This document shows, one piece after another, positions 2,872-35,721 of a stretch of DNA of 45,144 nt. Numbering within the stretch: position 1 is the stretch's first letter; every line of letters starts with the position of its first letter. This DNA is from Nemertoderma westbladi (taxonomy: Eukaryota > Animalia > Xenacoelomorpha): positions 1 through 45,144 of the forward strand of contig JAUCBJ010006678.1 in assembly GCA_032718475.1 (NCBI GenBank). Reading direction: 5' to 3'. The notes under the pieces are model-generated. The model saw only the letters and a program-made list of their open reading frames with translations. It had not been told where the DNA came from and did no database searches. Position numbers and translations under genes: made by a program.

Positions 2872-3967
2872 TGTAAAAGCTTTTGCGGAATTGCCCGGTT
2901 ATTTTTCCTTATTTTTCCCGTAAAATACTCTGTAGTTGGTTTAGTAGGTGTAAGAGGCCGTATTATTGCTGTATCGGTGTTTTTTAGAGGACCTAAGAGC
3001 TATTTCTTCCGTATGTGTACTTTGGAAGACATGGTTGGTGATTCTATGGCAATTCTATGACGCAAAAGGGGCTAGATACTCTTGAACAGTAGTTACGGCA
3101 AGTGTTTATTATTAGTGTTTATTACTTGTTACGGCAAGTATTATGGGCAGTGTTTACATTCTGTCCTGAGCCAGGAGAGAGCGGCTTTGGAATATTTTGT
3201 GCTTTTCTGCTTTAGCCTAACACTAGTAGGCTTAATTATAAGGACATATATCCGTTATCTGATGTCTGGTTAACTGGCCCATACTGTGCAACTTAACTTA
3301 ACATTACTGCTTTGCTGTCGGTTATTCATTATATTTGTTGATGAATTATTATATTTGGAATAACGAGAAATAACCCCGAAATCCAATATTCTTGATATAC
3401 CGAAGGTAAGAGAGAAAGGTTACATATAACGATTGTGACTTATGTTAAAGTGGTTTGAAGTGAATCTAATGTTATTTGATAGACCCTACATGATTCGGTC
3501 CGTGTTCCTTTTATATGTGACTAAAATCAGTGAAGATCGGCAGATCAGTGTGCAGTATTGTGCAGCATTGTGTATGAGTGAGACTGATAACGAAGCATTT
3601 CCTAAAGAATGCGCCATATATGTGAATTGTAACTAAGCCATATCGTTGTGAGTAGTTTAAGTCATAACTCTGTTTATATAGATAGAGCGCCACGTCCTAA
3701 AGGAACTGTTAATATTCCCCGAAGGTGAATAATATTGTCAGAGATTATATAATACTGTCAGTCGAATAATACATTAGGCTTACATAGCAATACGATTAAG
3801 CCGTCGAAGTCAATCTCCCGGGTATATCCAACGGGTGAATGATCGCGCACAGATTGGTTTCAACTAGTGTAGTGAATCAAATACTTGTCAGAGGCTAAAG
3901 CGATTTATTATCTAGAAGACATCCTAATTTGGCGGGTTAAACTGCCAAAGGTCTGAAAGCGCGAACA
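2872..3967 (+). repeat. putative 3' LTR (~1.1 kb) of the left-hand element
   Basis: TGT...ACA termini, preceded by a PPT-like tract, ends exactly at the integrase breakpoint. Single copy, so boundaries are inferred. Confidence 0.45.
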
Positions 3968-4626
3968 TAATCGAATCGCCCATTTATCCAATGACGTTTA
4001 ACAAGTGCTTTCATGGATTTTACCGCAGCTTCAGCATGTCCATTAGATTGGGCATAATATGCTGATGAAATGTTTTCTCTGTCGATGCCATATTCCTTGC
4101 AAAATTCTCTAAATTCCAATGATGTGTACTGTGAGCCGCCATCACTTCGAAGTTTCATCGGGATTCCAAAATCAACAAAAAACCTCTTTAGAGATCTGAC
4201 CACAGTGGATGTTGAAGGTACTTTATCATAAAAGTCTACACATGGCCATCCTGTATAACGGTCGACATATACCAAAAAATATTGATCTCCATATTGAAAC
4301 AAATCCGATGATGCAGAATGGAAAGGATGGTTTGTCACTGAATCTGACAGAAGTGGTTCCTTAGGTAGACTCGGTTGATATTTCTGACAAAGCTCGCAAC
4401 TATTTACAGTTTGTATAATATCATTGGTCATCCCAGGCCAATAAAATAATTGATTCGCTCTTGCCTTTGTTTTCGTAATACCCTGATGGGAAGAATGTAA
4501 GCGTCGTAAAATTTCAGGTCGAGTACTAGCAGGCAATATGATACGATTTCCATCAAGAGTTATCATTCCATCAGAGATCGATATGCGATCCCAGAGCTTG
4601 CCGTACACTCGAGCCGGATGTTGCAT
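3968..4626 (-). pseudogene. pol: Gypsy integrase (HHCC zinc finger + rve core), split off from the rest of pol
   Basis: LHSSHQG..CELC zinc motif, SDLF / VDRYTGW / RSDGGSQY / SNGHAEAAVK core motifs in ORF 3937..4626. The last ~9 residues read into the neighbouring LTR. Confidence 0.93.
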
Positions 4627-4629
4627 TGG

Positions 4630-6140
4630 TGTTCGCGGTATTTCAACTTTTCATAACGCGAGTTGAATATTTTTTGTATTTATTTAAAATGATTATTCCG
4701 ATATTACTACTGGGTGCGGGACCATGGGTTTTGGGCACATTCAATGGACTGGGGGCGATTTATGGGCGAACATTGGGGCAACTTACAGGGTACGGGAATA
4801 ATTTCATAGTTATAAGGGCCAGGGGTGGGAGGCAAAGTTAAGCAGTATTCAGGTTAGCCTGAGTACTATTAGGCCCTGGCCAACTTCCTGCTGCCTGTAG
4901 AGGTGGATTTGGTAACGCGCCAGGCCTAAAGGACAAGGACTGCCCTTAGTGGCCCCTGGCCAACAGCAGTTATTACGAGCCTGAAAAGGACATCGGAACG
5001 CCGGCTGCTTGCGCCAGGGATTCGCGACGGGAAACGACAGCCCCCTTAGCTAAGCCGTACTGGTTCTCAATGACCGATCCCTTCGGGGTTCGCGAGGGGT
5101 GGGACGGACATGCGAAAGGGTGGCCGACTTACAGAGGAAGGGTTTGACGAGGACTGCCCTTAGCGGTCTCTGGTCAACAGCAGTTATTACGAGCCTGAAA
5201 AGGACATCGGAAAGTCTGCTGCTTGTGCCAGGGATCTGCGACGGGAACCGACGACAGACCCCTTAGCTAAGCCGTACTGGTTCTCGATGATCGTTCCCTT
5301 CGGGGTTCGTGATGGGTGGGACGGACATGCGACGGGGTCGAAAGACAAAAGACTGGACGCTACTGGCCTACCGACTGTTCGGAGCAGTTTCTCGGCTGCC
5401 GAAGCGACTATGAGCCTGAATAAGGACTCGGAAAGCCTAGGTGGTTGGGTCTCTGCGATGAACCGACGGACCCCTAGCCAAGCCGTACTGGTTCTCGATG
5501 ATCGAACCCCTCGGGGTTCGGGAGGGGTGGGACGGATACGCGAACGGGTCCACCGACATGACAGACTCCTAGCCAAGCCGTACTGGTTCTCGATGATCGA
5601 TCCCTTCGGGGTTCGGGAGGGGTTGGACGGATAAGCAACAGAGTCTACCGACTGGACCGACCCTTAGCCAAGCCGTGCTGGTTCTCGATGATCGATCCCT
5701 TCGGGGTTCGGGAGGGGTGGAACGGACACGCGATAGGGTCGACCAACACCGACACTACGGCATCAAGACTAGGACCGAGGGAAAATCTGGGGAACATTAG
5801 TTAGGCTAAAATCTGAGCGAACAGTGGGTTATTAAATAATATACTGTAGGGATTTATATTGTCGTGTATAATTATTGTGAATATTTGGTGTATATTGATT
5901 TGGGGAAGCCCAATTAATTCTCAATCAGGGTTCAATGATGTTGAACAGGGTTCAACAGTAGGAAGTTACATTAAAGAGTATATCCAACCAATGCAACTTT
6001 TCTTCAACCGCAATCCTGCATCTAAGAAATTTCTCCTTCTCCACAATCAATATCCGGTGACTGGCCGGGACTCTGTGGTCTGTAAAGTCACGTCTCCAGC
6101 ATCGGCGTTTTTCCCCCCTGGTGTTGGGATAACGGCAACA
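4630..6140 (+). repeat. BEL/Pao 5' LTR
   Basis: TGTTCGCGG...GGCAACA; collinear with 17314-18824, about 22 substitutions counted by eye and no indels seen. Confidence 0.97.
5045..5735 (+). repeat. five ~70-nt GC-rich hairpin repeats inside the LTR (also present in the 3' LTR)
   Basis: Unit tagc(t/c)aagccgtactggttctcgatgatcgatcccttcggggttcgggaggggtgggacgg at ~5046, 5263, 5475, 5569 and 5664. Confidence 0.9.
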
Positions 6141-6142
6141 AA

Positions 6143-6154
6143 ATTGAGAATTAA
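6143..6154 (+). other. non-tRNA primer-binding site, complementary to LTR 5914-5925 (putative self-priming)
   Basis: ATTGAGAATTAA begins 2 nt after the LTR end and is the exact reverse complement of TTAATTCTCAAT at 5914-5925. No TGG-initiated tRNA PBS next to the LTR. Confidence 0.7.
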
Positions 6155-6387
6155 CACGGTCAATTTTGATAGGGTATCAAAATTGAGAATTAAACGCGAC
6201 CAACTTCAACTGGTGGAAGTTGGGAATTCTTCAATACTCTTCAAACTCTCTCCGTGCTTACCCAGCACCCACTACGAGGAAACTCTGGTATTTGAGTTAA
6301 GACAAAGTTGTGGTTTAATCAATCAACAAACTCGATCTAACCAACTCGTAGTCAGCAAATCACATATTGGAGAGTTGTTAACAGGGA

Positions 6388-6579
6388 ATGGAAGTATCGA
6401 TCACACCCATTGATATCATCCAAGTTGAGCCAGGAATCTGGCACGTCGAGGTGGAAGTACAAGGAACAAACGTCGGACGATTCAGGATTAACATTCGGGT
6501 GGTCCAGGCTGAGTACAATACTTACGAGGAACTATTCTACGACATCGCATATCTTGCTATCAACGAGGCGTTGGAATAA
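6388..6579 (+). CDS. 63-aa upstream ORF overlapping the gag start (TAATG)
   Basis: ATG-initiated, protein-like alternating hydrophobic pattern; its TAA shares the A with the gag ATG at 6579. Confidence 0.5.
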   Translation: MEVSITPIDIIQVEPGIWHVEVEVQGTNVGRFRINIRVVQAEYNTYEELFYDIAYLAINEALE

Positions 6580-9500
6580 TGGCAAACAACGTATCCGATA
6601 TCGATGAGATGGACCACCACACAGATTCGGAAGCCGACGAGGTACCGAACGTCAAGAACATGACCCGTCGACTAGGGGCTCTCAAGGGCGGAGTAACTCG
6701 AGCGTATCAACGGATAGAGAAACAACTCAAGGGAGTCAAAACCCCCCTCAACGAGATACAAACTCAGCTTCAAAGTATCCGAAATATCCTACAGCGATAT
6801 GAAATAATGATACAGGCGTACCAAGAGCTCGTTCCCTCCACCGATCAGGAAAACTACCCCAGGTTAGAAGAACACGTTGTACATCTAGATGGGTTCCGCA
6901 AACAACACTGGAGGACCCTCAGCCTTGTGAGAGGCTATGAAGAACAGTACTACAAGAGAGCTGAAAGAACAGACGCAGAATCAGTGCGAACCTCCAGCAC
7001 CAGGACAGCAGTACATCGAAAGAGAACGGGGTCCTCTAGAAATCAGCACTCCAGCGCTAGGAGCGCGGTGTCCGGTTCAGCACACAGCTCTCAAGGGGGT
7101 CAACCACTCCGAGACCAGCTACGAGAACGGAAGGCATTAGCCCTCAAAGCTCGGATGGAAGATGAGTATATTCAACTGCAAACCGAGCAAGATGTATTAG
7201 CCGCCGAAATGCAAAAACGAGAGGCCGAACGGCAGGCCGTACAACATGAACAGGATGCTGAACAATGTGAACAGGAGGCTGAACAACGTAGACAGGAGGC
7301 TGAACAACATAGACGAGAGGCCGAACGGCAGGCCGAACAACGTAGACGGGAGGCCGCACAACGTGGACGAGAGGCCGAACGAGAGATCGAACAACGTAAA
7401 TGGGAAGCAGAAATGCGTAAACAACACGCCGAGGCCCAAGCGATTCTCATCCACAAAAAGAATGCTGATATTGCGAAACTCGCGGAATATGAAGCCGCAC
7501 TTATAGAACGAGATATTCAACTATACGAGGACTGGGAAAGGGAAATAGATCAGGATTATGAACCAATCCTGGTACCGGAGTTAGAGAAGTCATTTACACC
7601 AACAGCGGCAAAACTTCCGAAACCCGAGATCCCGCCTACCAAACAGTCTACGTTATCGGCACAAGCACCGGTGTTCCATCCCCCACCGGTTACGCTTAAA
7701 AATGAGGAACCGTATTTCCCATCCAACCCCACGACAACGAGTGTATCCAAGTACGAGCCTGAAAGGGACTCGGAACGGGACGCCACTCCCCGATCCAACA
7801 ACCCATTTACATCCACACCACAAACCCGTAGTCGCGTCCTCATTAAAACTCCACCTATCATTGATCCATCGAGTATGGGAGTGAGTGCCAATAACTATAA
7901 CCCTCCGAGTCACTCCAGTTCAGACGACGTCGGTATTATCCGGGCGTTGGAAAACCGCCTTGCCAAGCCTAAGATGGAGATCCGCACCTTCGAAGGAGAT
8001 CCCGTCGATTACCTCAGATTCAAGAAACGGTTCTTTGCGCAGATTGGATCAACGGACATAGCCGACGCACAGAAATTGGTATATTTATCGCAATACCTGG
8101 GTGACAAACCACGCCGAATTATGGCATGTTTTGAGGGTGGTTCTCATGAGGCATACTATGACGCATGGAAAACTCTAGATAAAAGATACGGAAATACCGG
8201 AACTATAATTAATAAAACTCTAGAGAGACTGATACAGGACACGGGATCACTAGGGGACCCACAGAACATCCAGGAATTCTCCGACTCTATGAAGGATGCC
8301 TACTATACTCTGAAACCCTTAAATAAGGAGGACCAGGTGAACAACATTCTAAACCTCCGACAGATCGCCCGGAAGTTCCCCGGATGGCTACAAAGCAAGT
8401 GGGCTTATAAATGCGTAGATCTCCGGCGCAGACATCCAGATCGAGATCCTAGCTTCCTTGAAATGTCGGCATTCCTGGACGATATCTCCGAAGCCATGAA
8501 TGACTCGATGTTTTCAAAACAGAGTCTCGCCAAGTTGGACGGAATAGAGAGCAACTCCAGGAGTAAGATACCCCCTCCGAAACCGAGATTCCGCCCCCCA
8601 CCGGTGAGTACGATGGCCATCACCATGGCCGAGGATTCCGACGACGAAGACTACGAGGAACTGACATCCGCCGAGGAATGGGCATGTTATCTCGCGAATT
8701 GGGCACCCGAGAGGGAAGGCATCACAAACTCCCTGCTCTGTCTCTATTGTGGAGAGAAACATAAAGTTGAATTCTGCAGGAAGTTCCAGTTTGCCGAACT
8801 CGTCCCACGCTTCGAAGCGATTATGAAACACCGAGGATGCTTCCGGTGTCTTGGTACAGGTCACTACGTTCGGGAGTGCGACCAAAGGTCGTGTTGTGCG
8901 GTTTGTAACGACCTACGTCATCACACGCTCCTCCACATCCCCGCGAACTTTGACTTCACTACCCTCCCCTTTCGGATTGAAACAAAGCGAAGAGGAGAAA
9001 CGAACCACGTTTCTAAAGGATCCCGGACAACCCAACGGAGAGAAACCAACCCGTTTAAAACCTCCACTAACGCATCACAAGTGACAAATATCTCAGCCAC
9101 GATCAACCTGATAAATCGCCGTTACATGGTCTTCGCTAAGGTAATCCCAGTAAGAATTCAGGGAGTCGGCAAATCCTTGACGACACTCGCGTTCCTTGAT
9201 AACGGGTCGGACGGAACCATCATCGACCGGGATTTCCTCGAGCAACTCGGCCTAGACTATGAACCTTGCAAACGGCCCATACAAACTATCACCGACAACA
9301 GAGAGGTACACTCCGGGGAGGTGCAACTCCAGATGGAAGGAGTAATGAAGGGCTACGAAACGGTTAAGTTGACCATCAAGAACGCCTTGGTACACACAGA
9401 CCTCCGAGTGCGGTTCCGACAATCGGCCGAGTACGCCCCCCTCATACAGCTGGATCGAGACGACGTAGACCTACGGTGCCCGCCATTGGATGTAAACTGC

Positions 9501-11525
9501 ATCACCCTACTGATCGGACTTGATACACCGGAACTACTCATCCCCACCGGAGATATCGCCCGATCTATAAAACAGGATGACGGATTTTATGCTGAACGAA
9601 CAATAATGGGATGGACACTCTGCGGCATTAAGGAAGAAACTACTGACACCTATACCTACCTTCCCAGATGTCAGATTAAAGAGAATGCAACCTCCGTGGG
9701 TTATTGCTCAGCTACGGACCTTGACGAGGATATGTTTCTGGAGACCGAGAAAACCCAACAAGAGATGACGAAATATTTTAATCTAGAGACCCAGGAGTTC
9801 GCTGAAAAGGACGAAAACCCGTCCGAAGAGGATCAATATTGTATGGACGTTCTCGACCAGGCCACGTTCAAAGACGGACACTGGTGTTCACCTATGTTAT
9901 GGAAGGACCCAAACAAACCAATGGCAATCAACGCCAGCATGGCACTTAGGCGACTTAAGGGGATTCTACGCCGGCTGAATGACCAACCCGAGATAAAGGA
10001 GAAATATAATACCGTAATCCATGGATATCTCGACGATGGATTAGCAGAAATGGTACCACGGAATGAACTGCAAGGTGGTAAAAGAACATATTATCTCCCA
10101 ACCCACTATGTGGTAGAAGCCCGGAAGGGTGGGAAAATCCGAGTGGTAAATGATGCCGCCGCTATGTACCAGGGCGAATCCCTAAACAGTCAGCTTTACA
10201 CGGGACCCAACATATATAGTACACTCATCGGCGTATTGATCAGTTTCAGGGAAAACCGGGTAGCATTCACCTGCGACATCAAGGCCATGTTTCATCAAGT
10301 TCGTACGCTACCAAGAGACTCAGACTGTCTACGTATCCTATGGACGGATAAAACACTAACTCAACAGGAGATTAGTCAACTTACGATAAAGGACGTAGAC
10401 ATAATGCGTATGGTCGTCAGGATCTTCGGCGCTAAGGACTCGCCGGTAGCATGCAGTGACATGCTGAAGAGGACGGCAACTATGTGCGAAAACGAGTTCC
10501 CTCCAACCGTCATAGAAACCATCCGACGATGCTTTTACGTGGACGACGGATGCGCCGGCGCAGATAATGTGGACGAGGCATATCGGCTAGCAATGGGGAT
10601 GGTAGAATGTCTAAAGAAAGGAGGTTTTCCGCTCGTGAAGTTCAGATCCCACAACAAAACACTTATGGAAAAGTTTCCGGAGGACATCCGACTGGAAAAT
10701 AACAAAATGTATTCGGAGGATGTGGAACACCGTGTACTCGGGATTGAATGGGACATAGAATCAGACGAATTCATTTTCAAATATAAACCCCTACCCAAGC
10801 CTATGACGAAAAGGGGATGTTTGTCGATAAAAAGCGCCATCTTCGACCCACTAAATTTCATATCTCCAGTAACCTTGGCCGGAATGAACCTGATTAAGGA
10901 AATGTGGATAGAAGGACTGGGATGGGACGAAGAACTCCCCCCACACCTCAGCGTCAAATGGAGAAAATGGACGGAGCAGCTCGAACACCTACATCTTATG
11001 CGGATCCCTCAACCGTTCTTCCTCGATAAACTACCCACCGATATCTTCCAGCTCCATACCTTCTCGGATGCTTCGAATACCGGAATCGGCGTAGTCACCT
11101 TCTTACGAAGACTAAGCAACGATGGAAACGGCGATACGAGCTTCTTATTTTCTAAAGCTAAGACAGTATCCGGGGAATTCGTAGCAACGATTCCAAGACT
11201 CGAGTTACAGGCTGCAGTTTGGGCAGTGAGACAGAACCGCATGGTCATGCGGAACCTACGAATCCCCATCGAATCTCAACACTTCTGGGTCGATTCGAGT
11301 ATCGTTCTCTACTATCTCCACTCTCCATCCCGACGTCACACTACGTTTGTTGCGAACCGAGCCACGGAGATTAAACAGTGTACCGGCCGAGAACAGTGGC
11401 ATCACGTGAACGGGAAAGAAAATCCAGCGGATTTATCAAGCCGAGGCGCCACCCCAAAACAACTCGGTAAAAGTAAGCTCTGGCTTACAGGTCCGGAAGT
11501 CCTACAGCAGCCACAATTAACATAG
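6579..11525 (+). CDS. gag-pol: BEL/Pao Gag-Pol: coiled-coil Gag, DUF1759-like region, zinc knuckles, aspartic protease, RT, RNase H (ends at premature TAG)
   Basis: FEGDPVDY..F, CLYCGEKH..C / CFRCLGTGHYVREC / CAVC..HHTLLH, FLDNGSD, DIKAMFHQV, FYVDD, FSDAS, TIPRLELQAA, NPADLSSRG. Confidence 0.96.
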   Translation: MANNVSDIDEMDHHTDSEADEVPNVKNMTRRLGALKGGVTRAYQRIEKQLKGVKTPLNEIQTQLQSIRNILQRYEIMIQAYQELVPSTDQENYPRLEEHVVHLDGFRKQHWRTLSLVRGYEEQYYKRAERTDAESVRTSSTRTAVHRKRTGSSRNQHSSARSAVSGSAHSSQGGQPLRDQLRERKALALKARMEDEYIQLQTEQDVLAAEMQKREAERQAVQHEQDAEQCEQEAEQRRQEAEQHRREAERQAEQRRREAAQRGREAEREIEQRKWEAEMRKQHAEAQAILIHKKNADIAKLAEYEAALIERDIQLYEDWEREIDQDYEPILVPELEKSFTPTAAKLPKPEIPPTKQSTLSAQAPVFHPPPVTLKNEEPYFPSNPTTTSVSKYEPERDSERDATPRSNNPFTSTPQTRSRVLIKTPPIIDPSSMGVSANNYNPPSHSSSDDVGIIRALENRLAKPKMEIRTFEGDPVDYLRFKKRFFAQIGSTDIADAQKLVYLSQYLGDKPRRIMACFEGGSHEAYYDAWKTLDKRYGNTGTIINKTLERLIQDTGSLGDPQNIQEFSDSMKDAYYTLKPLNKEDQVNNILNLRQIARKFPGWLQSKWAYKCVDLRRRHPDRDPSFLEMSAFLDDISEAMNDSMFSKQSLAKLDGIESNSRSKIPPPKPRFRPPPVSTMAITMAEDSDDEDYEELTSAEEWACYLANWAPEREGITNSLLCLYCGEKHKVEFCRKFQFAELVPRFEAIMKHRGCFRCLGTGHYVRECDQRSCCAVCNDLRHHTLLHIPANFDFTTLPFRIETKRRGETNHVSKGSRTTQRRETNPFKTSTNASQVTNISATINLINRRYMVFAKVIPVRIQGVGKSLTTLAFLDNGSDGTIIDRDFLEQLGLDYEPCKRPIQTITDNREVHSGEVQLQMEGVMKGYETVKLTIKNALVHTDLRVRFRQSAEYAPLIQLDRDDVDLRCPPLDVNCITLLIGLDTPELLIPTGDIARSIKQDDGFYAERTIMGWTLCGIKEETTDTYTYLPRCQIKENATSVGYCSATDLDEDMFLETEKTQQEMTKYFNLETQEFAEKDENPSEEDQYCMDVLDQATFKDGHWCSPMLWKDPNKPMAINASMALRRLKGILRRLNDQPEIKEKYNTVIHGYLDDGLAEMVPRNELQGGKRTYYLPTHYVVEARKGGKIRVVNDAAAMYQGESLNSQLYTGPNIYSTLIGVLISFRENRVAFTCDIKAMFHQVRTLPRDSDCLRILWTDKTLTQQEISQLTIKDVDIMRMVVRIFGAKDSPVACSDMLKRTATMCENEFPPTVIETIRRCFYVDDGCAGADNVDEAYRLAMGMVECLKKGGFPLVKFRSHNKTLMEKFPEDIRLENNKMYSEDVEHRVLGIEWDIESDEFIFKYKPLPKPMTKRGCLSIKSAIFDPLNFISPVTLAGMNLIKEMWIEGLGWDEELPPHLSVKWRKWTEQLEHLHLMRIPQPFFLDKLPTDIFQLHTFSDASNTGIGVVTFLRRLSNDGNGDTSFLFSKAKTVSGEFVATIPRLELQAAVWAVRQNRMVMRNLRIPIESQHFWVDSSIVLYYLHSPSRRHTTFVANRATEIKQCTGREQWHHVNGKENPADLSSRGATPKQLGKSKLWLTGPEVLQQPQLT

Positions 11526-11609
11526 AGTACCCGATTCAACCCCAAACTCAATAGCGGAAAATACTCCGAGGATGATAAAGAGATCCGTAAAGTCCATAGA
11601 AGCAACGCA

Positions 11610-12314
11610 GTGGAAATTTATAGTTGTCTGACTGAGCCTGCAAAGGACTCGGGCAGGCACTATAACGTCGCGACGATCACTCAACCAGCGGCGTCTTTAC
11701 ATCTGTTGATTGAGCAAACTTCATCAATGAGACGGCTCATCCACCACGTTATAACCCTTCGCAACTTCCTACGGTGGAAAGACAACAAACCGATAGTTCA
11801 ACGGAGTATACAAGAACTCATTATCGCGGAGAAGTGTATCGTTGGATATGTCCAGAGAGAAAGTTTCCCCGATGAGTGGGAACAACTTAGTGCGGGCAAA
11901 ACCTTGAAACTGGACAGCCCAGTCTACCAACTGAGACCAATGATGGGAGAGGACGGACTGATCCGACTGAATACCCGGATGGCAAACGCCCCGGTCGAAT
12001 ATGAGGTTAAATACACGGCGCTTCCGCCCGGAACGTCGACACTAGCCAAGCTATTAATTCAACAATGTCACGAGGAAAACCATCACGCAGGACAGAACTG
12101 GATTATAGCTAATATAAGACAAAGATATTGGATCACCCACATCCAGCCACTGATCCGGAAAGTGTTGAAACGTTGCTTTATCTGCAGAAGATATCTAGCG
12201 CCACCACTCACACAAAAGATGGCCGACTTACCAGCCACCCGTCTACAGTCCGATTCCCCACCGTTCTACGTCACCGGAGTGGACTGTTTCGGACCGTTTA
12301 CAGTCATCGAATGA
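11610..12314 (+). pseudogene. pol: BEL/Pao pol continuation: integrase HHCC zinc-binding region (same frame, between two nonsense codons)
   Basis: HEENHHAG..RQRYWI..CFICRR, MADLP..R, TGVDCFGP; same frame as 6579. Confidence 0.93.
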
Positions 12315-12383
12315 CGATCCAACATCAAATGCTGGGGAGCCATTTTTACCTGCCTTAGGTCTAGAGCAATTTACCTAGACATT

Positions 12384-13241
12384 GTGGTAAACCTTACGCA
12401 ACACGCGTTCATCAATGCTCTGCGTCGGTTCGTGGCGAACAACGGGACATGTCGTCACATGCACTCCGATAATGGTACAAACTTTGTGGGAGGAGAACGA
12501 GAACTTAGAGAGGCGATCGAGGGATGGTTTACCGATAACACCGCATCCCAAGTCTGGAAGGAACACCAGATACAGTGGCACTTCCAGACCCCCTTAGCAC
12601 CCCATACGAGCGGGGTATGGGAGAAACTGATCGACTTAGTAAAACGGTCCATGCGCGTCGCTCTAGGAGACACCCGGGTAACCCATGACAGCCTCCGCAC
12701 CACATTCTGCAAGATCACGGCTACCCTGAACAACCGGCCCATTGTCCCTATCCGAGACAACCCCACAGACCTGGAGCCCCTCACTCCTAACCACCTACTG
12801 GGGAGACCCAAAACCCATGTTCTCCCAGAGACCATGTTTCCGGATCCCAACGATATCGCGAGACATACAAATTGGAAGAAGGCCCAAGCGTTGGCAGCGC
12901 ATTGGTGGAGAATCTGGGCCCAGAAGTATCTCATAACCCTCCGGACCAGGAGGAAGTGGAACAACACCTACAGGAATGTCGCAGTTGGCGACATGGTATT
13001 AGTAAAAGAAGATCTTAAAGACCGCGTCCACTGGCCTGTGGCGCGAGTCGCGGCAATACATCCGAGTAAAGACGGACTTGCGAGGACTGTGATGATACGA
13101 ACGGCAAAGGGCCACTACCAACGCCCTATCCAGAGGCTGTGCCTTCTCGAAGGCAATGACAGTGGTGATTCTACGAGAGGTGATAAGTTCCCTACTCAAG
13201 ATCCTGCTGCGGACATTGGTGACAATTACAAATGCGTTTAA
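12384..13241 (+). pseudogene. pol: BEL/Pao integrase core and C-terminal (DUF5641-like) domain
   Basis: SDNGTNFVG, GVWEKLI, LNNRP, LTPNHLL, W..YL..L..R.KW, DG..R.V; same frame after TGA at 12312. Confidence 0.94.
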
Positions 13242-13514
13242 ACCCTTCTCATCCTGTTGACAAACTCATCAAACTGTGATTTATCGACAATGATAATGGA
13301 CCCCCCTTAAACCAACTGTAACCACGCAATGGTATTTGTGTTTCCTCGTGTGTTATGTGGAGTCCAGCGTCACCCTGCAGATGTTTCGACTGACGCAGGG
13401 TCGTTTATGTATTGTTTACCCTGATTTTGGGCATCGGGACCGACGATATTGGATTATTGGAAATGGTAAAGATTTGAAGTGGAATTCATTGTATTCATTT
13501 CAGTATGTTATGTT

Positions 13515-13940
13515 GTCCGTTGCGTGCGCAGTTCGGGGCGTAGGCGGTGTAACGAGTCCAGCTGTAGATCCCGGATTGCCGCGCAACACCCCCTCTATCC
13601 CTTTATTCTGGTGGGTCCATGGTGCATCCACATGACTTCGACGATAGGGGGTTTTATGTTCTCAGTCGCGTTATTCTGGTGGGACCATTACGTGGATTTT
13701 GGGGCGTAGGCGGTGTAACGAGTCCAGCTGTAGATCCCAGAATGTTGCGTAACCCCATCCCACATGACTTCGTCGGCTGAGCTTTATGTTGTTGGGAGTG
13801 TTATTCTGGTGGGTCCCTGGTGCACTCCACGTGACTTCACTCCCAGCGTCTTCATTGTCCGTTACGTGCGCAGTTTGGGGCGTAGGCGGTGTAACGAGTC
13901 CAGCTGTAGATCCCAGATTGCCGCGTAACACCCCTTCCAC
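13515..13940 (+). repeat. three ~170-bp tandem repeats between pol and the extra ORF
   Basis: Core ggggcgtaggcggtgtaacgagtccagctgtagatccc at ~13536, 13701 and 13877. Confidence 0.88.
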
Positions 13941-14826
13941 AACAAAAATCTACCAAAGAAGATGATTGAATGTAGTTGGAAATGATGAAAAGAAACAGAC
14001 AACTATACTATAAACCGAATGATGATGCGTATGATGATGAAAATGTAATGATGCGCACCCTGGTGCTGCGCTTATAACAAATGATGATAGCCAGGGGGCT
14101 ATAACCCCAATGATGATGTGGAAATAAACAAAATTGAGAATAAATGGTGGAACTAAATGATGAAATATATGTGGAAATAAATGAAATGTGAAATAAATGG
14201 TAGAAATAAATGTGTTGAAATATGTTGAAATAAATGAAATGAGATGAAATAATAATGAGAAATGAAAAAAGACAAAAAAAGGTATAAAAAGTCTAAAGAA
14301 AAGAATTGGAAAAAAGAAAAGGACATAAAAAGTCAAAACTGGTTGGATATTAATGTATAGCTATAGTAACTGTAAATGCTGAATGTATTAGCAATAAGAT
14401 GGTAGATGCCTATATAGCAATGTTATTTAATAAACTGAATTACAAATAAACTGAATTATTCTGCAATCACTATAGTTTCAGACTTTCTGGACTTATAATT
14501 AACTGATCTAATTTGTAACGGACATAATCGTAAATATGGACCCAAATCGCCAAATTATCAGCGAATTACGTAACACGATAGATCTACTGGAATATTTGCA
14601 ACCTGGATCCCCTAACTTTGATACGAATTGGAGCGTCCTGATAAGAGAACGTGTGAATCATTAAATTCACTGGGCGAGAGAGGGACCGGATTCCAAGAAT
14701 CTACGAGCCCTCTGGTTAGCCGATGCTAGTACGAGACTGAAAATAACTCGGAACGCAAAGGCAACCAGAGGGGACGAGTCGTCGTTCTGGGAAACGTTCC
14801 GGCAAAGCGTCTACAAATCCCGATGT

Positions 14827-16197
14827 TTGATATACGACAACGAGGGAAACGCGACGCCCACCTCAAAAGTGATTACGTTGGCGAGATGTCAAAGTTTCGT
14901 CGACGACAAGAGTACGTACCTCGCCCACTGGGGAAACCTGTCGGAGTGTACGGCGACGCTACGAGAGGAACGTATATCGATCATCCAGAATCGCGACAAC
15001 TACCAGGAAAAGTACGGGGCGAAAGAATACGGTCGATCCTTGGTCGTCGTCCTCGGAACCCTGGACGGTTTGGTATTGGTATGTCGAATATTTCCGACAC
15101 CCAGACAGGAAGTGCAGGCAGCCGGAGCGATCTGGTTGCTACCTCCGGAAATCCAAAAGATCCTCTTCAACTTCGACATCATTAAAATCGGGTCGGATAT
15201 AAAGGCGGATGTCCGGAACAACTACGCGAACGCTCCTTCAGGAAGAAACCGACGAGACAACCTCAACGCCCTTAGCCATTGCATCGACACTCAAACGCTA
15301 TTAGCCTGGTTACGATTCGCCGAGTTCATGCGAGGATTCCGAGAGGTGAGACCGACGAAATCCGGGATCGGTTACCTCGCTGTGCTAAACGGCGGCATCG
15401 ACTTCAAACCCCAGAAATTCCGGGATTATAATAAAATATATGGTGGATACCCGGGATTAGAAATAAAGAGCGAGCGAGAGGGTCGATGGAAGGACGTTGA
15501 CTGGAAGTGGACGATACACCAAAGGTGGGAGAATCCTGATCGACGGAACTACATCTACGTCGTTATGGAGTGCTACACCGTCGCTAAGTTTATCTGTAAA
15601 ACTCTCGATAACCTCATTACGGCGGTTCCTCTTTCCTTCGTCGACTACGACTGGAACGAGGTTATAAACCACGCGTTCAAAGCGGTCGAGAACATCACAC
15701 CGGGAGAGACGAAAACGCTCGCCGTTATCGATTCCTGGGACGAGAGCGGACCTTACGACATCCCTACGATTACCGATATTCTCGGTGCGGAGGAGCCTCT
15801 GATTTCTTCGGAAGGGGAAGAACTATGGCTACATGAGGGTGTTCTACTCTCCACCCCAAAGCGACAACTCGAGTCGGAGGCCGCTTACCAACCGGCAGCC
15901 AAACGGGTTACCTCCGCCAAACCTACGACGGAAGCAGGCGTTTCCTCACCACTCGGCTTCGGTAGCCCTGCGAGGGAGTTAGTTACCACCTTGGCGTTAA
16001 ACCACTTCGGCGATACGTGCCAAAGGTTATCCCCGTATCCTTTCCCGGGTGGCGAAGACTGGTCGTCGGAGATTCCGAGTACCAGCAATCAACGGACCCG
16101 CTCAGCGATATTGGTCGAGAAGGGCCCCAGCGCTGCGCCGACTCCCGACGATCTCCTCGGAATCCCTCCGTCAAAAACCCCGGCACCTCTTCGCTGA
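14827..16197 (+). CDS. DEDDy 3'-5' exonuclease domain (WRN/EXD/mut-7-like)
   Basis: ExoI LIYDNEG, ExoII LPPEIQKILFNFDIIKIGSDIKAD, CIDTQ, GIGYLA..GIDFKP, ExoIII-like YVVME. Confidence 0.75.
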   Translation: MIYDNEGNATPTSKVITLARCQSFVDDKSTYLAHWGNLSECTATLREERISIIQNRDNYQEKYGAKEYGRSLVVVLGTLDGLVLVCRIFPTPRQEVQAAGAIWLLPPEIQKILFNFDIIKIGSDIKADVRNNYANAPSGRNRRDNLNALSHCIDTQTLLAWLRFAEFMRGFREVRPTKSGIGYLAVLNGGIDFKPQKFRDYNKIYGGYPGLEIKSEREGRWKDVDWKWTIHQRWENPDRRNYIYVVMECYTVAKFICKTLDNLITAVPLSFVDYDWNEVINHAFKAVENITPGETKTLAVIDSWDESGPYDIPTITDILGAEEPLISSEGEELWLHEGVLLSTPKRQLESEAAYQPAAKRVTSAKPTTEAGVSSPLGFGSPARELVTTLALNHFGDTCQRLSPYPFPGGEDWSSEIPSTSNQRTRSAILVEKGPSAAPTPDDLLGIPPSKTPAPLR

Positions 16198-16203
16198 CCA
16201 GCG

Positions 16204-17136
16204 GTGGCTACCACACCCTCCGTTCCTCAGGATCCTATGCGACTAACCCGTTGGTACGCCGAGCAAACCGAATGGATCCACCGCCAGAAACGGTCGTCCG
16301 AGTTGAGACCGACGGGATACAAAGAAGGTTATCTGAGCGAGGACCTACTACGCAAAAGCCCAGCCTTCCGCGGGCTACCGACCACCGCGAATATTCAGAA
16401 GAGCGACCGACGACTCGAGTATTACGTCGGCGTCCCAATTCCGATATTCCCCGGTCGAGAGATGCAGTTGGAGGTGTGCGGTGACTGTGGTTCGGAGCAG
16501 TGCCCACGCGGTAGAAGGAATCGGGTTACCGATTCGTGCCTCCAGCTCCTCGGGATACTCTATTGCCCATACTGCGCGACATCGGGCCACGACGTTTCCG
16601 TCTGTCCAATCCTATATAACCTCTGCACCACGTGCGGTTTCCATGGACATTCCTCTAGCCCCCGCTGCTATATCAAATGTCCTACCAAAGACGTTACCAC
16701 TATGGGAAATATGGTCATGTTTGAAACATACGCAAACAGCCACATAAAGACCAAGGTTCGGAGAAACGCTCGGAATATCGCGCAGGAGATGGCGTGCGGG
16801 TATTTTTCCTTCCCGGAGCGCCTCCATACGACGGCAACGCTACTTTTCCATTACGTGGATCTGTTGCTGAGCGCCGGATTATTCGGCCCATTCGAAGTCC
16901 TTAGACGCCTATACTCGTATAAAGAGGAGTTCGGTGACGGAGAGTGGTCCCTCGAGGCTCGCAACTCCGAGTTGGAACGACGAACCGACATGATCCCAAT
17001 GCCATCGAAAAGAAGAGCCGCCAGGAGACAAGCCGAAGCATTGCTCACGATGGATGTTGACGCTCCCCTTCCAGCTCTAGTGATCGACGAGAGTCGACGG
17101 GCGAAGAGGAGAGAGGCGTATCAGAGAAAGAAATAG
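16204..17136 (+). CDS. Cys/His zinc-knuckle cluster with basic C-terminus
   Basis: CGDC..., CPYCATSGHDVSVC (CX2CX4HX4C), CTTCGFHGH..C; ends RRAKRREAYQRKK. Confidence 0.75.
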   Translation: MATTPSVPQDPMRLTRWYAEQTEWIHRQKRSSELRPTGYKEGYLSEDLLRKSPAFRGLPTTANIQKSDRRLEYYVGVPIPIFPGREMQLEVCGDCGSEQCPRGRRNRVTDSCLQLLGILYCPYCATSGHDVSVCPILYNLCTTCGFHGHSSSPRCYIKCPTKDVTTMGNMVMFETYANSHIKTKVRRNARNIAQEMACGYFSFPERLHTTATLLFHYVDLLLSAGLFGPFEVLRRLYSYKEEFGDGEWSLEARNSELERRTDMIPMPSKRRAARRQAEALLTMDVDAPLPALVIDESRRAKRREAYQRKK

Positions 17137-17304
17137 TGGACCGGGATATTCCAGGAACATTTATTGAACATTTATTTTATACATATATATCTATATAAAC
17201 TCTAGGCCAAATTAATTAAGACTATGCAATATTAAATTTGGGTTTTTTATATTGGGAATGACCTACGCAAACTCAATCTACCGATAGACCTCACGAAGGT
17301 CATT

Positions 17305-17313
17305 GGGGGGGAC
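17305..17313 (+). other. polypurine tract of the BEL/Pao element
   Basis: GGGGGGGAC immediately before the 3' LTR TG at 17314. Confidence 0.85.
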
Positions 17314-18824
17314 TGTTCGCGGTATTTCAACTTTTCATAACGCGAGTTGAATATTTTTTGTATTTATTTAAAATGATTATTCCGATATTACTACTGGGTG
17401 CGGGACCATGGGTTTTGGGCACATTCAATGGACTGGGGGCGATTTATGGGCGAACATTGGGGCAACTTACAGGGTACGGGAATAATTTCATAGTTATAAG
17501 GGCCAGGGGTGGGAGGCAAAGTTAAGCAGTATTCAGGTTAGCCTGAGTACTATTAGGCCCTGGCCAACTTCCTGCTGCCTGTAGAGGTGGATTTGGTAAC
17601 GCACCAGGCCTAAAGGACAAGGACTGCCCTTAGCGGCCCCTGGCCAACAGCAGTTATTACGAGCCTGAAAAGGACATCGGAACGCCGGCTGCTTGCGCCA
17701 GGGATTCGCGACAGGAAACGACAGCCCCCTTAGCTAAGCCGTACTGGTTCTCGATGACCGATCCCTTCGGGGTTCGCGAGGGGTGCGACGGACATGCGAA
17801 AGGGTGGCCGACTTACAGAGGAAGGGTTTGACGAGGACTGCCCTTAGCGGTCTCTGGTCAACAGCAGTTATTACGAGCCTGAAAAGGACATCGGAAAGTC
17901 TGCTGCTTGTGCCAGGGATCTGCGACGGGAACCGACGACAGACCCCTTAGCTAAGCCGTACTGGTTCTCGATGATCGTTCCCTTCAGGGTTCATGAGGGG
18001 TGGGACGGACATGCGATGGGGTCGAAAGACAAAGGACTGGACGCTACTGGCCTACCGACTGTTCGGAGCAGTTTCTGGGCTGCCGAAGCGACTACGAGCC
18101 TGAATAAGGACTCGGAAAGCCTCGGTGGTTGGGTCTCTGCGATGAACCGACGGACCCCTAGCCAAGCCGTACTGGTTCTCGATGATCGAACCCCTCGGGG
18201 TTCGGGAGGGGTGGGACGGATACGCGAACGGGTCCACCGACATGACAGACTCCTAGCCAAGCCGTACTGGTTCTCGATGATCGATCCCTTCGGGGTTCGG
18301 GAGGGGTGGGACAGATAAGTGACAGAGTCTACCGACTGGACCGACCCTTAGCCAAGCCGTGCTGGTTCTCGATGATCGATCCCTTCGGGGTTCGGGAGGG
18401 GTGGAACGGACACGCGACAGGGTTGACCGACACCGACACTATGGCATCAAGACTAGGACCGAGGGAAAATCTGGGGAACATTAGTTAGGCTAAAATCTGA
18501 GCGAACAGTGGGTTATTAAATAATATACTGTAGGGATTTATATTGTCGTGTATAATTATTGTGAATATTTGGTGTATATTGATTTGGGGAAGCCCAATTA
18601 ATTCTCAATCAGGGTTCAATGATGTTGAACAGGGTTCAACAGTAGGAAGTTACATTAAAGAGTATATCCAACCAATGCAACGTTTCTTCAACCGCAATCC
18701 TGCATCTAAGAAATTTCTCCTTCTCCACAATCAATATCCGGTGACTGGCCGGGACTCTGTGGTCTGTAAAGTCACGTCTCCAGCATCGGCGTTTTTCCCC
18801 CCTGGTGTTGGGATAACGGCAACA
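17314..18824 (+). repeat. BEL/Pao 3' LTR
   Basis: Direct repeat of 4630-6140, followed by TSD ATTGG. Confidence 0.97.
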
Positions 18825-18829
18825 ATTGG

Positions 18830-20776
18830 TAAATCTGATATTTGTGTATCTTGAGTTAGTACTTGACAAATTGACTTGTAATCATTGTCAATGAGAATTT
18901 CTTTTTTTATGAACTCTAACGCACAATCTTGAGTTTCCAAATTATTCAAATCTTTCTTTAGAGCATTTAAGCTTGCGACCAATATCTGATTACTGAACTT
19001 ATTGTCAACCTCTAAGTCAGATATTTCAGCAACTGAAGGCTTGCTAACTGGAGCACGACTGAGTGCATCAGGAACACAATGTTCTTTGCCCCTTTTCCAT
19101 TCAACAGTAAATACATATGGTCCCAACTTCTCAATTATCCTCTGTAAGCGAGGGTTGTCAATCGCATCCAGACTCAAGCCATTACAAATTGATATCAAGG
19201 GTTTGTGGTCTGTTACCACTGTGAAACCGTGAAAACCCAACAAATATATACGACATTTATTTATAGCCCAATGTATCGCTAATAATTCTAGTTCACATAC
19301 CGCGTATCTGCTTTCAGTATCTGAAACAAATCTTGAGCCGCATTGAATTACCCGCCAGTTAGGTGATTGTGAGCAGCCATGGTCCTGCATCAGTGCAAAT
19401 CCTAGGCCATGTAGCCTGGAAGCATCCGTCCAAAGTGAAGTCCTCAATTTAGGATCAAAATGGGCTAAAATTGGCGGTAATGATAAAATCGTTTTGGTTT
19501 TATCAAAGGCTTCTTGGTGTTCAGGTAACCATTGCCAAACATATTTCGTTGAAAGCAGCTGCCTGAGTGGCATAGAGTTATGAGCTACATCGGGCACAAA
19601 TGAACCCAGCTGATTTACCAGCCCAAAAAATGATCTAAGATCTGTTACATTCGCTGGTATTGGAAATTTTGAAACTGCTTCTATTTTTGCTGGATCAGGG
19701 TATATGCCATTCTTGCTGATTTTAAATCCTGCAAACACCACTTCTTGACCAATTACAAATTTTTCTGGATTCATGGTAATTTGATGCTTGCTACAGCGTT
19801 CCAGAACATTATCAATAACATCAATGAGGCCATCTAGAGAATTGGAAAAACAAAGAACATCATCAACAATCTTTCGGACACCATCTACGCCTTCTAGGGC
19901 TCTATCACCACGTGCGCAATATTCATCACCTGAACTGCATAGTCCCATTGGTGCTCTCTTGTACATTTTCCTGCCCCAAGGGGTAATAAAAGTTGTCAAT
20001 TTTTGACTCTCATCATCCATCTCTATTTGCCAGTAGCCTTTTGTGGCATCTAATGTGGCAAACCAAGAGGCTGTTGGTGGTATTGATGAAGTGATATCAT
20101 TTGGTGATGGAAATGGGTGTACTGGCCTCTTTACTACCTTGTTAAGAGCCTTGTAGTCTACAACAAGGCGCACTCCCCCTTTTGGTTTCCCAACCACAAG
20201 AAATGGCGAACACCAATCAGTTGGCCCAATAACATTTTCAATGACACCCATTTTTTCCATGTAGTCCAACTCAGCCTTTGCTGATTCACGGTAAGCAAGA
20301 GGGATTTGGCGTGCTGTTATACACTGAATTGGCTTTGTATTACCAATATCTGTTAAATAGATATGCATGGCGGGCCCCTTCATAGCTTTGAAACTTGTTG
20401 TTGAATCGAAAACAGTTATGTACTTTTGTTTGAATTTCAACTTAAATAAATCAAGTTCATTTCTAGTAGGCATTCTAGTAGAATCAACTGGGAGTTTTTG
20501 AGCAGAAATAGAGAGTTTTTGTTCATTCTCAACATCAGTGTTACAAATAGTTGTTATCTGGCTTGCAAATTTAACCTTTTTAGATACATCATTTAGGCCT
20601 AACGACTTTTGAATAGTCATTGCATATTTAGTTTCTGGTCGCTTGAAGCCATATTTGCAAGCATCACTGTCTGAATAGGGGAAAGTCGGTGAGATAATAC
20701 CTAAATCAATGAGATTATGCCATGCTAAGAGGAGGTTATCCACATCAGGTGAAACATAAGCTGTAATTTCGGCCAC
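18830..20776 (-). pseudogene. pol: Gypsy pol: reverse transcriptase + RNase H (interrupted by BEL insertion)
   Basis: VRLVVDYKALN, LDATKGYWQI, PMGL, IVDD, TDASRLHGLG, ELELLA, TDHKPL, VPDALSR in ORF 18731..20776. The part left of 18830 reads into the BEL LTR. Confidence 0.95.
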
Positions 20777-20970
20777 ATGGTGAAGCCACTTAACATGAAT
20801 AATGGAAGCACCATAACATGCAAGTTCAGATTCTTAGCTGCAAAAATGCGCCTTTTATGCCTATTGTCTATTTTAATATTAAAATTATCAACAACAGAAG
20901 CTGGGATAATACACTCGGAAGCACCTGTATCAGGGAGAGCTTCTATAGTAAAGGACTGGGTTTTGGGGGG
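20777..20970 (-). pseudogene. Gypsy aspartic protease, frameshifted
   Basis: TQSFTIEALPDTGASECIIP reads in a shifted frame between gag and pol. Two apparently compensating indels (~20965 and ~20835), since gag and pol share a frame. Confidence 0.8.
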
Positions 20971-22222
20971 TCCAGACTGTCACTTCGCATAGAGGAGTAG
21001 ATCTACCATAATGTGTAGATGCATGACTAACACAAATATAGTTATTTTTTATATTTGATTTAGAATCCATGGAAGAGTTATCAATGTCAGGGTCATTGTC
21101 ATCCCTTTTTTTTATTAGACATACAGACTTGAAATGTCCGATGAGTCCACAATAAACACATTGCTTACCTTTAGCCGGACAGAACGACCTTGCATGCGGA
21201 TTAAGACCACAAAAAAAACATTTTCTGTTTGGTGTAGTTCTGGGAACTTGTAATCGATCACGTGATTGTGAACGGGTTCTTTCATATTGGTTTTGCTGCT
21301 TATTGCGTCTGTATGAAGACATTCTAGCTGAATAACAAGAACCAGTTTCGTCACTATAGTTACTAGCATTACTCGTACTATATAATTTATTACACCAACC
21401 TTGGTCGTTCTCGTTATTATTTCCTAAGGCTTTTTGGTTCGCTGCAGCTGTCTCCCATGCAAGACATTTTGCTTTAATATCAGATAAACTTTGACTTGAC
21501 ATCCTTAACAGTTCACGTTGCAGTTCACGGTCTTCCACAGCAAGAACAATTCTTGTAGCTAGTTGGTCATCGTATGTGATGTTTTCGAGTTCCGCATTCC
21601 CTCCCAGTAACTTTAGGCGAACAAAGAAATCGGAAAACCGTTCACCATATTTCTGTGCGCATTTGTGGAAATTGAAGCGGCGTGTCATGACGGACAGAGT
21701 TTCTGCCAAATATTTCTGAATAGTGTCTAGTACTTCGTCTACCGGAACTGCAGGACCAACGTCAAGAAGTAGCTCCAATGTTTGAACTACCTTTGAGCTT
21801 AAGCAACCGCGGAGATACGCTCGCTGCTCACGTTGACTAAACCTAGACATGTTGTTCGATGAAAAATAATCTTTGAAGCATGTACGCCAAACAATAAAAT
21901 CCGAAAGGCTCGTATCGGACTGAAGCTCTGAAGGTTTTAAGGCCATATTAATCCGCTGCGTTTGATTTGTGGCCGCAGAAGGGTATGACTGTTCTACAGA
22001 TCGCTGGTTTTGTTCCGAAATCCGTCGGATGCGTCGAATTTTCGCTTCTAGTTTCTGGACATTATCCTCCATAACCTCAAAGGATGAATAATGAGTTTCT
22101 TGATCGGCTTGATCGGCTGGGATGTTCTCCAATTCATGACATAATAAAATTGAGGAACGATATTTAGCTAAAGACCTTTCAACGATTTGTAAAAATTCCT
22201 CAGCATCTCTAATATTCTCCAT
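20930..22222 (-). CDS. gag: Gypsy Gag (Mag-like, two CCHC knuckles)
   Basis: RRFNFHKCAQKYGERFSDFFVRL major-homology-like region; CFFCG..H....C-PAKGKQ-CVYCGLIGHFKSVC. Confidence 0.9.
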   Translation of the reverse strand: MENIRDAEEFLQIVERSLAKYRSSILLCHELENIPADQADQETHYSSFEVMEDNVQKLEAKIRRIRRISEQNQRSVEQSYPSAATNQTQRINMALKPSELQSDTSLSDFIVWRTCFKDYFSSNNMSRFSQREQRAYLRGCLSSKVVQTLELLLDVGPAVPVDEVLDTIQKYLAETLSVMTRRFNFHKCAQKYGERFSDFFVRLKLLGGNAELENITYDDQLATRIVLAVEDRELQRELLRMSSQSLSDIKAKCLAWETAAANQKALGNNNENDQGWCNKLYSTSNASNYSDETGSCYSARMSSYRRNKQQNQYERTRSQSRDRLQVPRTTPNRKCFFCGLNPHARSFCPAKGKQCVYCGLIGHFKSVCLIKKRDDNDPDIDNSSMDSKSNIKNNYICVSHASTHYGRSTPLCEVTVWTPQNPVLYYRSSP

Positions 22223-22528
22223 TTCAGCGGGTATACCTCCGGAAGCGGGAAGTTGATCAACGCTATTTGTTAGTTGAGCAACATCGCGTTCTGCTTTGTA
22301 GGCATATTGACCCCGACTTCTGCGTGCAGTGCTAATTAATGTTAGGTTCTTTGCCGGTAGACTCCATACCGGTACGGTTGCAGTATGCAGGTATGGGAAG
22401 TAGGCCTACCTTACCAAAGTAAGCCTACCCTTCTATTACAGTATTATTCTTGATCCAGGATTAATTACCGCCGCCGTATATTAACGGGATTTACGATTTA
22501 GCAGTTTAAGGTTAGGACTGTAGGACTA

Positions 22529-31354: not shown

Positions 31355-31593
31355 TGTAGTGAGCGCGATTCTCGCATTAGCGCGACTCACATCATTTCAA
31401 CGTAATATATTCAGATATTACAGTCAGGAACATGTACTATGTTGACACCAGGACAGCTGGTGTGGCACCGGTAGGTACATATATAAAGGCAGTAAACGGT
31501 AGTATGAGTGTAATATGAAGACTGACACGGACAGCAGTATGTTGTCCGTCGAAAGTGAAAGAATCTCACAGTTCGATATCTGTTACCGCTACA
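31355..31593 (-). repeat. CsRn1-like 3' LTR (239 bp)
   Basis: TGTAG...CTACA termini; identical to 35514-35721 over 208 bp. Confidence 0.93.
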
Positions 31594-31614
31594 CCACTCC
31601 CCCCAGAACCGTGA

Positions 31615-34600: not shown

Positions 34601-34783
34601 GGTGTCGAATCCGCTGGCGGGAAACACGCTCACCTGGGCGCCGGTGTCCACGAGGAAGTGGTGGCCGGAGTTTCGGTCCCAGAGGTAGAGGAGGTTGTCC
34701 CGCTGGTGGTAGCGACCAGTCGACGCAGCGGCTAGCGTCGGCTGGTCGGAGCGTTTCCCGGGAAGCTGCACGGCGACCGGCAC
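31615..34783 (-). pseudogene. pol: CsRn1-like pol (PR, RT, RNase H, integrase) with several frameshifts/deletions
   Basis: FLVDTGA; GYHQIP..PFGLKNA..YLDD; TDAS, TDHKPL, VADALSR; VDLVGPLP, SDRGAQF, NGLVERFHR, GPY module, spread over ORFs 33950..34783, 33110..33922, 32538..33365 and 31615..32775. Confidence 0.93.
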
Positions 34784-35457: not shown

Positions 35458-35499
35458 TATGTATAAACAGATGTTATTGACGCAAACCCGTTTGCGTCA

Positions 35500-35512
35500 G
35501 TCTGGGTCACCA
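35500..35512 (-). other. primer-binding site, tRNA-Trp-like (TGGTGACCCAGAC)
   Basis: Adjacent to the 5' LTR; one mismatch to the canonical TGGTGACCCCGAC. Confidence 0.8.
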
Positions 35513-35513
35513 A

Positions 35514-35721
35514 TGTAGTGAGCGCGATTCTCGCATTAGCGCGACTCACATCATTTCAACGTAATATATTCAGATATTACAGTCAGGAACATGTACTATG
35601 TTGACACCAGGACAGCTGGTGTGGCACCGGTAGGTACATATATAAAGGCAGTAAACGGTAGTATGAGTGTAATATGAAGACTGACACGGACAGCAGTATG
35701 TTGTCCGTCGAAAGTGAAAGA
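35514..35721 (-). repeat. CsRn1-like 5' LTR, outer 31 bp missing
   Basis: Identity with the 3' LTR ends after gaaagtgaaaga. Confidence 0.9.

Follow-up and report, generated by a model that had tools for sequence, protein, structure and literature searches.

A predicted self-complementary primer site in a BEL/Pao retrotransposon of Nemertoderma westbladi and its putatively splice-joined counterparts in related elements

Results

The BEL/Pao element and its insertion site

The window, i.e. the whole stretch of 45,144 nucleotides of Nemertoderma westbladi DNA analysed here (contig JAUCBJ010006678.1), harbours a BEL/Pao element of 14.2 kb at positions 4630-18824 (Table 1). A direct repeat at a spacing of 12,684 nt sets the bounds of both LTRs, which are 1511 nt long each and 98.5% identical, with 22 mismatches. 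Protease, RT, RNase H and integrase follow each other in gag-pol in the BEL/Pao order, with E values of 2e-14 for DUF1759, 7e-37 for Peptidase_A17 and 2e-28 for DUF5641, and the same domains are present in 985 homologs; the TG..CA LTRs, the target duplication and the polypurine tract are likewise those of a BEL/Pao element. The copy is young but broken, with two in-frame stops in gag-pol (11523-11525 and 12312-12314), and sits within the integrase region of a Gypsy-type element on the - strand (3937-4650 and 18731-22405; PNMA-like gag, RT, RNase H and integrase). The U3 regions (4932-5750 and 17616-18431) consist of tandem units of 95 and ~214 nt, which bring the LTR to 1.5 kb. The spacer behind gag-pol (13242-14664; 1.4 kb, non-coding) contains three 83-nt repeats (at 13513, 13679 and 13855), an A-rich tract and, at position 14133, nine nucleotides that match the beginning of the primer site described below.

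Table 1. Features of the BEL/Pao element, in positions of the window.
Feature	Position	Strand	Remarks
Target-site duplication ATTGG, 5 bp	4625-4629; second copy 18825-18829	+	
5' LTR	4630-6140	+	TG..CA; U3 tandem repeats ~4932-5750; without canonical splice donor
TATATT, weak TATA-like word	5891-5896	+	23 nt before 5914; non-canonical
Predicted self-primer segment	5914-5925	+	ends in AT; initiator-like YYANWYY match at 5914
ATTAAA, candidate poly(A) signal	5970-5975	+	44 nt downstream of primer 3' end
Predicted U5 stem-loop	6092-6130	+	pair probabilities 0.62-0.98
Predicted primer-binding site	6143-6154	+	2 nt past LTR end, exact complement of 5914-5925
12-bp hairpin	6160-6186	+	predicted fold; pair 6170/6176 is T-A in the window
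Second copy of site	6182-6193	+	first half buried in hairpin 6160-6186
gag-pol	6579-13241	+	DUF1759, aspartyl protease, Peptidase_A17, integrase H2C2/rve, DUF5641
Accessory frame	14665-17136	+	weakly DEDDy-exonuclease-like N-part and two Cys/His knuckles; in-frame stop 16195-16197
Polypurine tract, G-rich	17305-17312	+	before 3' LTR
3' LTR	17314-18824	+	TG..CA; primer segment present again at 18598

A post-LTR site complementary to the element's own LTR

The terminal CA of the 5' LTR is followed by two A's and then by ATTGAGAATTAA, the exact reverse complement of the LTR segment TTAATTCTCAAT, and no TGG site is found directly after the 5' LTR. Dinucleotide shuffling of the entire LTR yields a complement of at least 12 nt in 2 of 20,000 cases, and shuffling of its AT-rich last 400 nt does so in 12 of 20,000; complements of this length also occur at 6 of 10,900 internal start positions, which overlap. 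These counts place the chance of the match in the window at 1e-4 to 6e-4. Sequence and shuffles thereby confirm what an earlier note on this DNA had pointed out, namely a missing TGG primer-binding site and a 12-mer exactly complementary to the LTR. Use of the ATTAAA at 5970 as a poly(A) signal would place the primer segment in R. The second copy of the site was rejected as a working site, its duplex probability being 0-0.06, and is likely dispensable, since single-site copies of the family exist (four contigs in X2 and two in X3, see below). An intron in the LTR of the window was rejected as well; there is neither a canonical donor nor a junction match of at least 9 nt.

When 5914-6200 is folded, the duplex between the two 12-mers forms the closing helix (z -2.04; 4 of 200 shuffles equally stable). 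The predicted duplex in cis is favoured only if the RNA starts at 5897-5918 (0.88-0.96, in folds to 6160 or 6200), its probability being 0-0.47 for starts at or before 5885; for a start at 5914 it varies with the 3' extent of the fold, from 0.88 to position 6200 and 0.11 to 6300 to 0.87 to 6600. The three-duplex 'pretzel' of Tf1 is represented in folds of the window by the central duplex and the U5 stem only, and no pairing above 0.6 is predicted between the LTR and sequence 3' of the site. The TATATT at 5891, from which a transcript start near 5914 had been proposed, is indeed present 23 nt upstream, but it is a weak word, and no match to TATA[AT]A occurs anywhere in the LTR. The usual spacing from TATA to start is ~25-31 nt. 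Further TATA-like candidates lie at 5830 and 5867. The LTRs of eight among 21 relatives contain a TATA-like word ahead of the paired segment, at a distance of 31 nt in L003 and of 68-165 nt in the other seven. For self-priming, a cut at the 3' end of the primer suffices, and the primer does not have to coincide with the start of the RNA.

Variation within the family

The family of the window was found in four DNA runs (X1-X4) of three studies, its variants being read from short, unphased contigs over the leader, in the listed rows only; no TGG variant after the LTR occurs among these rows. If the pairs of the duplex are numbered starting at the LTR end, the LTR arm in X1 and X3 shows a swap of pairs 10 and 12 relative to the window, and the matching swap is seen in the post-LTR arm for pair 10 in X1-X3 and for pair 12 in one X2 contig, all contigs being unphased. 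Pair 4 is changed from C-G to U-A in the LTR arm of eight X1 and seven X2 contigs, again unphased, and in the post-LTR arm of one X4 contig, there at the second site. The variants at pairs 4, 10 and 12, read from unphased contigs, fit covariation of both arms. Hairpin pair 6170/6176 is C-G in about 90-100% of the read depth in X1-X3.

Complements split by predicted introns in related elements

Relatives were collected through an RT-RNase H alignment search; the best 80 of 542 confirmed loci, all on metagenome contigs and 34-39% identical, were considered. The 5' LTR end was set independently by LTR-LTR alignment in 12 loci and placed by eye in the further ones. Among the 80 loci, 32 could be classed; every one of them has a post-LTR site complementary to its own LTR, and none has a TGG site. 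Of these 32, 27 gain their complement, which includes a G-U pair in one locus, only when the exons flanking a predicted canonical GT-AG intron within the LTR are joined, whereas four (L026, L034, L073 and L076) have a contiguous complement as in the window. The remaining classed locus, L044, displays both states: one LTR has an acceptor where the junction falls, and in the other LTR the sequence is already joined. These LTRs (1-326 and 6694-7103) are 88% identical, with the donor outside the contig, and the pair looks like an exact intron loss, but may derive from two copies. In L073 (455-720), a likely splice acceptor precedes the contiguous site by ~13 nt, and an intron may therefore have been kept there without splitting the site.

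Across the 12 loci with alignment-fixed ends, the complement to the own LTR measures 10-15 nt, a length that no more than 5 of 1000 shuffles attain in any of them. Without splicing, the ten intron-bearing loci among them retain 6-9 nt, and the short contiguous complements in 10 of the 12 abut a polypyrimidine-AG; in silico removal of a GT-AG intron, with donors of the GTAAG or GTACGT type, joins perfect complements of 10-15 nt over the junction. In a cross matrix of the 12 loci the sites fit their own LTR, the pattern being diagonal except for related families, and the largest value between unrelated loci is 10. We also ran a blind scan for junction complements in the 64 loci with enough upstream DNA, to which LTR ends were not supplied. 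Matches were obtained in 15 loci, and 13 of the 15 top matches are located 0-3 nt behind the ACA of an LTR end (background 0.115; p 5e-11, with loci that are not independent), which, counted by hand, amounts to about 11 of 13 families.

The anatomy is shared throughout a set of 22 segments, i.e. 21 loci and the window: paired lengths of 10-15 nt, a gap of 0-6 nt past the LTR, and an AC or AT at the end of all 22 paired segments. The junction lies 4-7 nt from the 3' end of the paired segment, with predicted introns of 71-426 nt, and A[AT]TAAA is found downstream of the segment in 19 of the 22 and upstream in two. The window matches all of these traits except the intron. Covariation of the two 12-mers in relatives, which had been set as a check beforehand, is found both within the family, where contigs are unphased, and across families, and it strongly supports the proposal of the earlier note that a self-complementary primer site replaces the tRNA site.

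No TGG site was detected behind any readable LTR end of the relatives. A TGG-like word at the start of L063 does not qualify as a tRNA site; it is not located behind an LTR end, and the 3' LTR there is of the L056 type. The 48 unclassed loci comprise L010, L011, L014, in which no complement of at least 9 nt was found despite a likely LTR end with 900 nt of sequence before it, and eight loci with a readable end without TGG and no match in the LTR parts within their contigs; the rest are too short, truncated or not read by eye. Viral contigs gave 51 pattern matches, none of them a relative of the element.

Phylogenetic distribution

The tree contains 26 classed loci in 19 families at 80% identity (median identity 51%, midpoint root); it leaves out L079 and L080, which are too short, and L026, L064, L065 and L069, and otherwise consists of loci and database proteins only. 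Named clades of BEL/Pao are Suzu, Sinbad, Dan, Sailor, Pao and Tas. The trait is common to at least 19 related families, with a partner that is mostly intron-split, and is not an invention of this single element. Contiguous forms are scattered on the tree, L073 and L044 each being sister to a junction form. The window forms a long branch, ~40% identical to its nearest neighbours, in a clade with the junction-type loci L002 and L003 (support 0.997). From its place on the tree alone, as the LTR has no trace of an intron, we infer that the window represents an intron-less form produced by intron loss.

The accessory frame

The protein encoded by the frame between gag-pol and the 3' LTR has two remote homologs among 1.84 billion representatives (E 3e-5 and 2e-4). 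One of them has the same layout, and one gives a weak Pfam match to a 3'-5' exonuclease (E 0.2). The ExoII aspartate aligns, but no acidic residues of the window's protein align to the first acidic motif (ExoI D-x-E) of both homologs. No match was returned from the PDB and none from a word search, a profile search recovered only the protein's own member, and a single-sequence model (pLDDT 33) was unusable. In all 18 relatives with both pol and 3' LTR on one contig, these are separated by 59-447 nt, i.e. the accessory ORF is absent, and the frame is therefore not needed for self-priming. The idea that an accessory exonuclease is tied to priming finds no support in view of this absence and the weak exonuclease identity.

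Discussion

A proposed self-priming mechanism

Based on the complementarity of the two arms and its recurrence among relatives, we propose that the element probably primes minus-strand DNA with a segment of its own LTR RNA, with a 3' end freed by RNase H, rather than with a host tRNA. In the window, the RNA would fold back in cis, pairing 5914-5925 with 6143-6154, and the RNase H of the element would cut after 5925, leaving a 3'-OH that ends in A-pyrimidine. Strong-stop DNA would then be extended through U5 and through R as far as the cut before transferring to the 3' R; the position of the poly(A) signal, downstream of the cut, makes this transfer possible. Finally, the plus strand would copy the primer into a new primer-binding site, so that both arms stay matched. 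In Tf1, the self-primer is copied into the plus strand.

Self-RNA priming is likely a trait of the whole clade, with a primer that appears usually to be built by splicing, the window being intron-less. In the intron-bearing relatives, spliced LTR-derived RNA would serve as the primer, and the unspliced copy of R would serve as a template that retains the intron. As the poly(A) signal follows the intron, the repeated region of the RNA must include the intron, which can persist only if the unspliced copy is the template; spliced RNA is thus the likely primer donor. Occasional copying of spliced RNA would generate intron-less forms such as that of the window. Going one step further, we lean towards the reading, by a modest measure, that a broad group of animal BEL/Pao elements may employ a reverse transcription primer built by the spliceosome, in which spliced LTR RNA would substitute for the tRNA on the unspliced genome, splicing would act as a switch for retrotransposition, and intron-less forms would revert to fold-back priming of the Tf1 kind.

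Alternative explanations

A strict copy of the Tf1 scheme, in which the RNA would start at 5914-5916, the primer would be its first 10-12 bases, the trait would be private to the lineage and the accessory exonuclease would trim, is unlikely. The initiator-like pattern at 5914, the best folding for starts at 5897-5918 and the TATA box of L003, a member of the same supported clade, which precedes the paired segment by 31 nt, speak for such a scheme; yet the TATATT of the window is non-canonical and only 23 nt upstream, TATA-like words in seven relatives lie 68-165 nt upstream, the trait is clade-wide, and the accessory ORF is missing from the relatives and has an unaligned first acidic motif. 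Still less probable is that the pairing is real and selected, but for RNA folding, dimer formation, packaging or strand transfer, with another primer in use. A structured leader is suggested by the second site and the conserved hairpin, but in every classed locus the segment lies 0-6 nt past the LTR end, the position required of a minus-strand primer, and none of the readable LTR ends is followed by a TGG site.

Priming by a host RNA, i.e. a half-tRNA or another small RNA, with the LTR match being secondary, is considered very improbable. Half-tRNA priming exists in Ty1/copia lineages, according to the available part of PMC6317226, and BEL/Pao elements are given as tRNA-primed by ICTV (PMC8742986); the sites differ between families, however, each tracking its own LTR junction, the variants within the family alter both arms (in unphased contigs), no tRNA gene is encoded by the element in the window or in 28 loci, and an Rfam search of the element gave no match. 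Finally, a chance match or a rearrangement private to the copy in the window might be suspected from the AT-rich 12-mer and the adjoining local duplication, but the shuffle tests, the presence of the match throughout the family in three studies and the 32 classed relatives refute it. We accordingly retain self-RNA priming as the probable reading.

Comparison to known systems

ICTV describes BEL/Pao elements (Belpaoviridae, Semotivirus) as 4.2-10 kb long, with LTRs of 0.2-1.2 kb and a site of 18 nt for tRNA-Arg or tRNA-Gly, and their replication as poorly understood and tRNA-primed (PMC8742986). The element agrees with this description in its domain set and order, its LTRs and its polypurine tract, but differs in lacking a tRNA site, in its 1.5-kb LTRs and in its length of 14.2 kb; with no TGG after the LTR, it is BEL/Pao-type by its proteins and departs from the ICTV genome description.

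The closest functional parallel is Tf1, in which an RNase H cut makes the self-primer, as stated in the accessible portions of PMC7175516 and PMC5341516; self-priming has been reported for Tf1/sushi elements and predicted for Tcn1 and TAR (parts of PMC6317226; bioRxiv 2022.12.06.519325). Like Tf1 and Tf2 of Schizosaccharomyces pombe and other Tf1/sushi elements, as far as the excerpts of PMC7175516 and bioRxiv 2022.12.06.519325 describe them, the elements studied here have an LTR-adjacent site complementary to 10-15 nt of their own LTR RNA and no tRNA site. In contrast to the Tf1/sushi group, which are Ty3/gypsy chromoviruses, the window encodes BEL/Pao proteins and no chromodomain was found in it; there is a gap of 0-6 nt past the LTR, the primer is a candidate RNA 5' end by folding and motif scans, and it spans a predicted splice junction in most relatives. 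The element is thus predicted to work like Tf1 but is no member of Tf1/sushi. A plant criterion for self-primers, complementarity to the LTR over 10 bp or more that starts 0-5 bp past it, is given in the part of PMC6317226 available to us, and by the same positional criterion self-priming is predicted there for the TAR lineage of Ty1/copia (Houba, Osr-1) and the Tcn1 clade. These differ in belonging to other superfamilies and plant hosts, and that part of the source describes no splice-built primer. Bdelloid rotifer elements with a DEDDy-type ORF3 (Juno, Vesta), in the sections seen of PMC5408684, similarly have an extra frame past pol with exonuclease-like and Cys/His motifs; the window's frame, by comparison, is weakly exonuclease-like, with the first acidic motif unaligned and no link to priming.

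Neither self-priming nor splice-built primers in BEL/Pao were found among the literature matches listed, which leave out subscription journals, Repbase Reports and supplements, nor in the portions seen of PMC3601003, PMC8220671 and PMC5408684. The main texts of PMC554778 (Sinbad), PMC3118150 (metazoan BEL/Pao) and PMC6238403 (mollusc LTR elements) mention no PBS or tRNA. With no earlier report found, self-RNA priming in BEL/Pao and a splice-built primer seem to be new.

BEL/Pao ranks among the main LTR groups of animals, and a tRNA-free primer would, if true, represent a further independent origin of self-priming and may put the elements beyond control by tRNA fragments at the primer site. A self-primer would explain why tRNA-based annotation lacks PBS calls. 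A primer assembled by splicing, if true, would tie transposition to host RNA processing and raises the matter of how introns are retained through reverse transcription. For annotation, a junction complement 0-6 nt past the LTR end offers a practical signal.

Other repeats in the window

Further repeats are located downstream of the BEL/Pao copy. Long inverted repeats of 22-nt tandem units, foldback- or MITE-like, occupy 24631-26945, and a GC-rich element spans 31355-35721; its direct repeats, 208 nt long, are identical, and it has an integrase core on the - strand. A perfect 58-bp palindrome without spacer (38333-38448) lies between two RT-like frames and may be a foldback or an assembly artefact.
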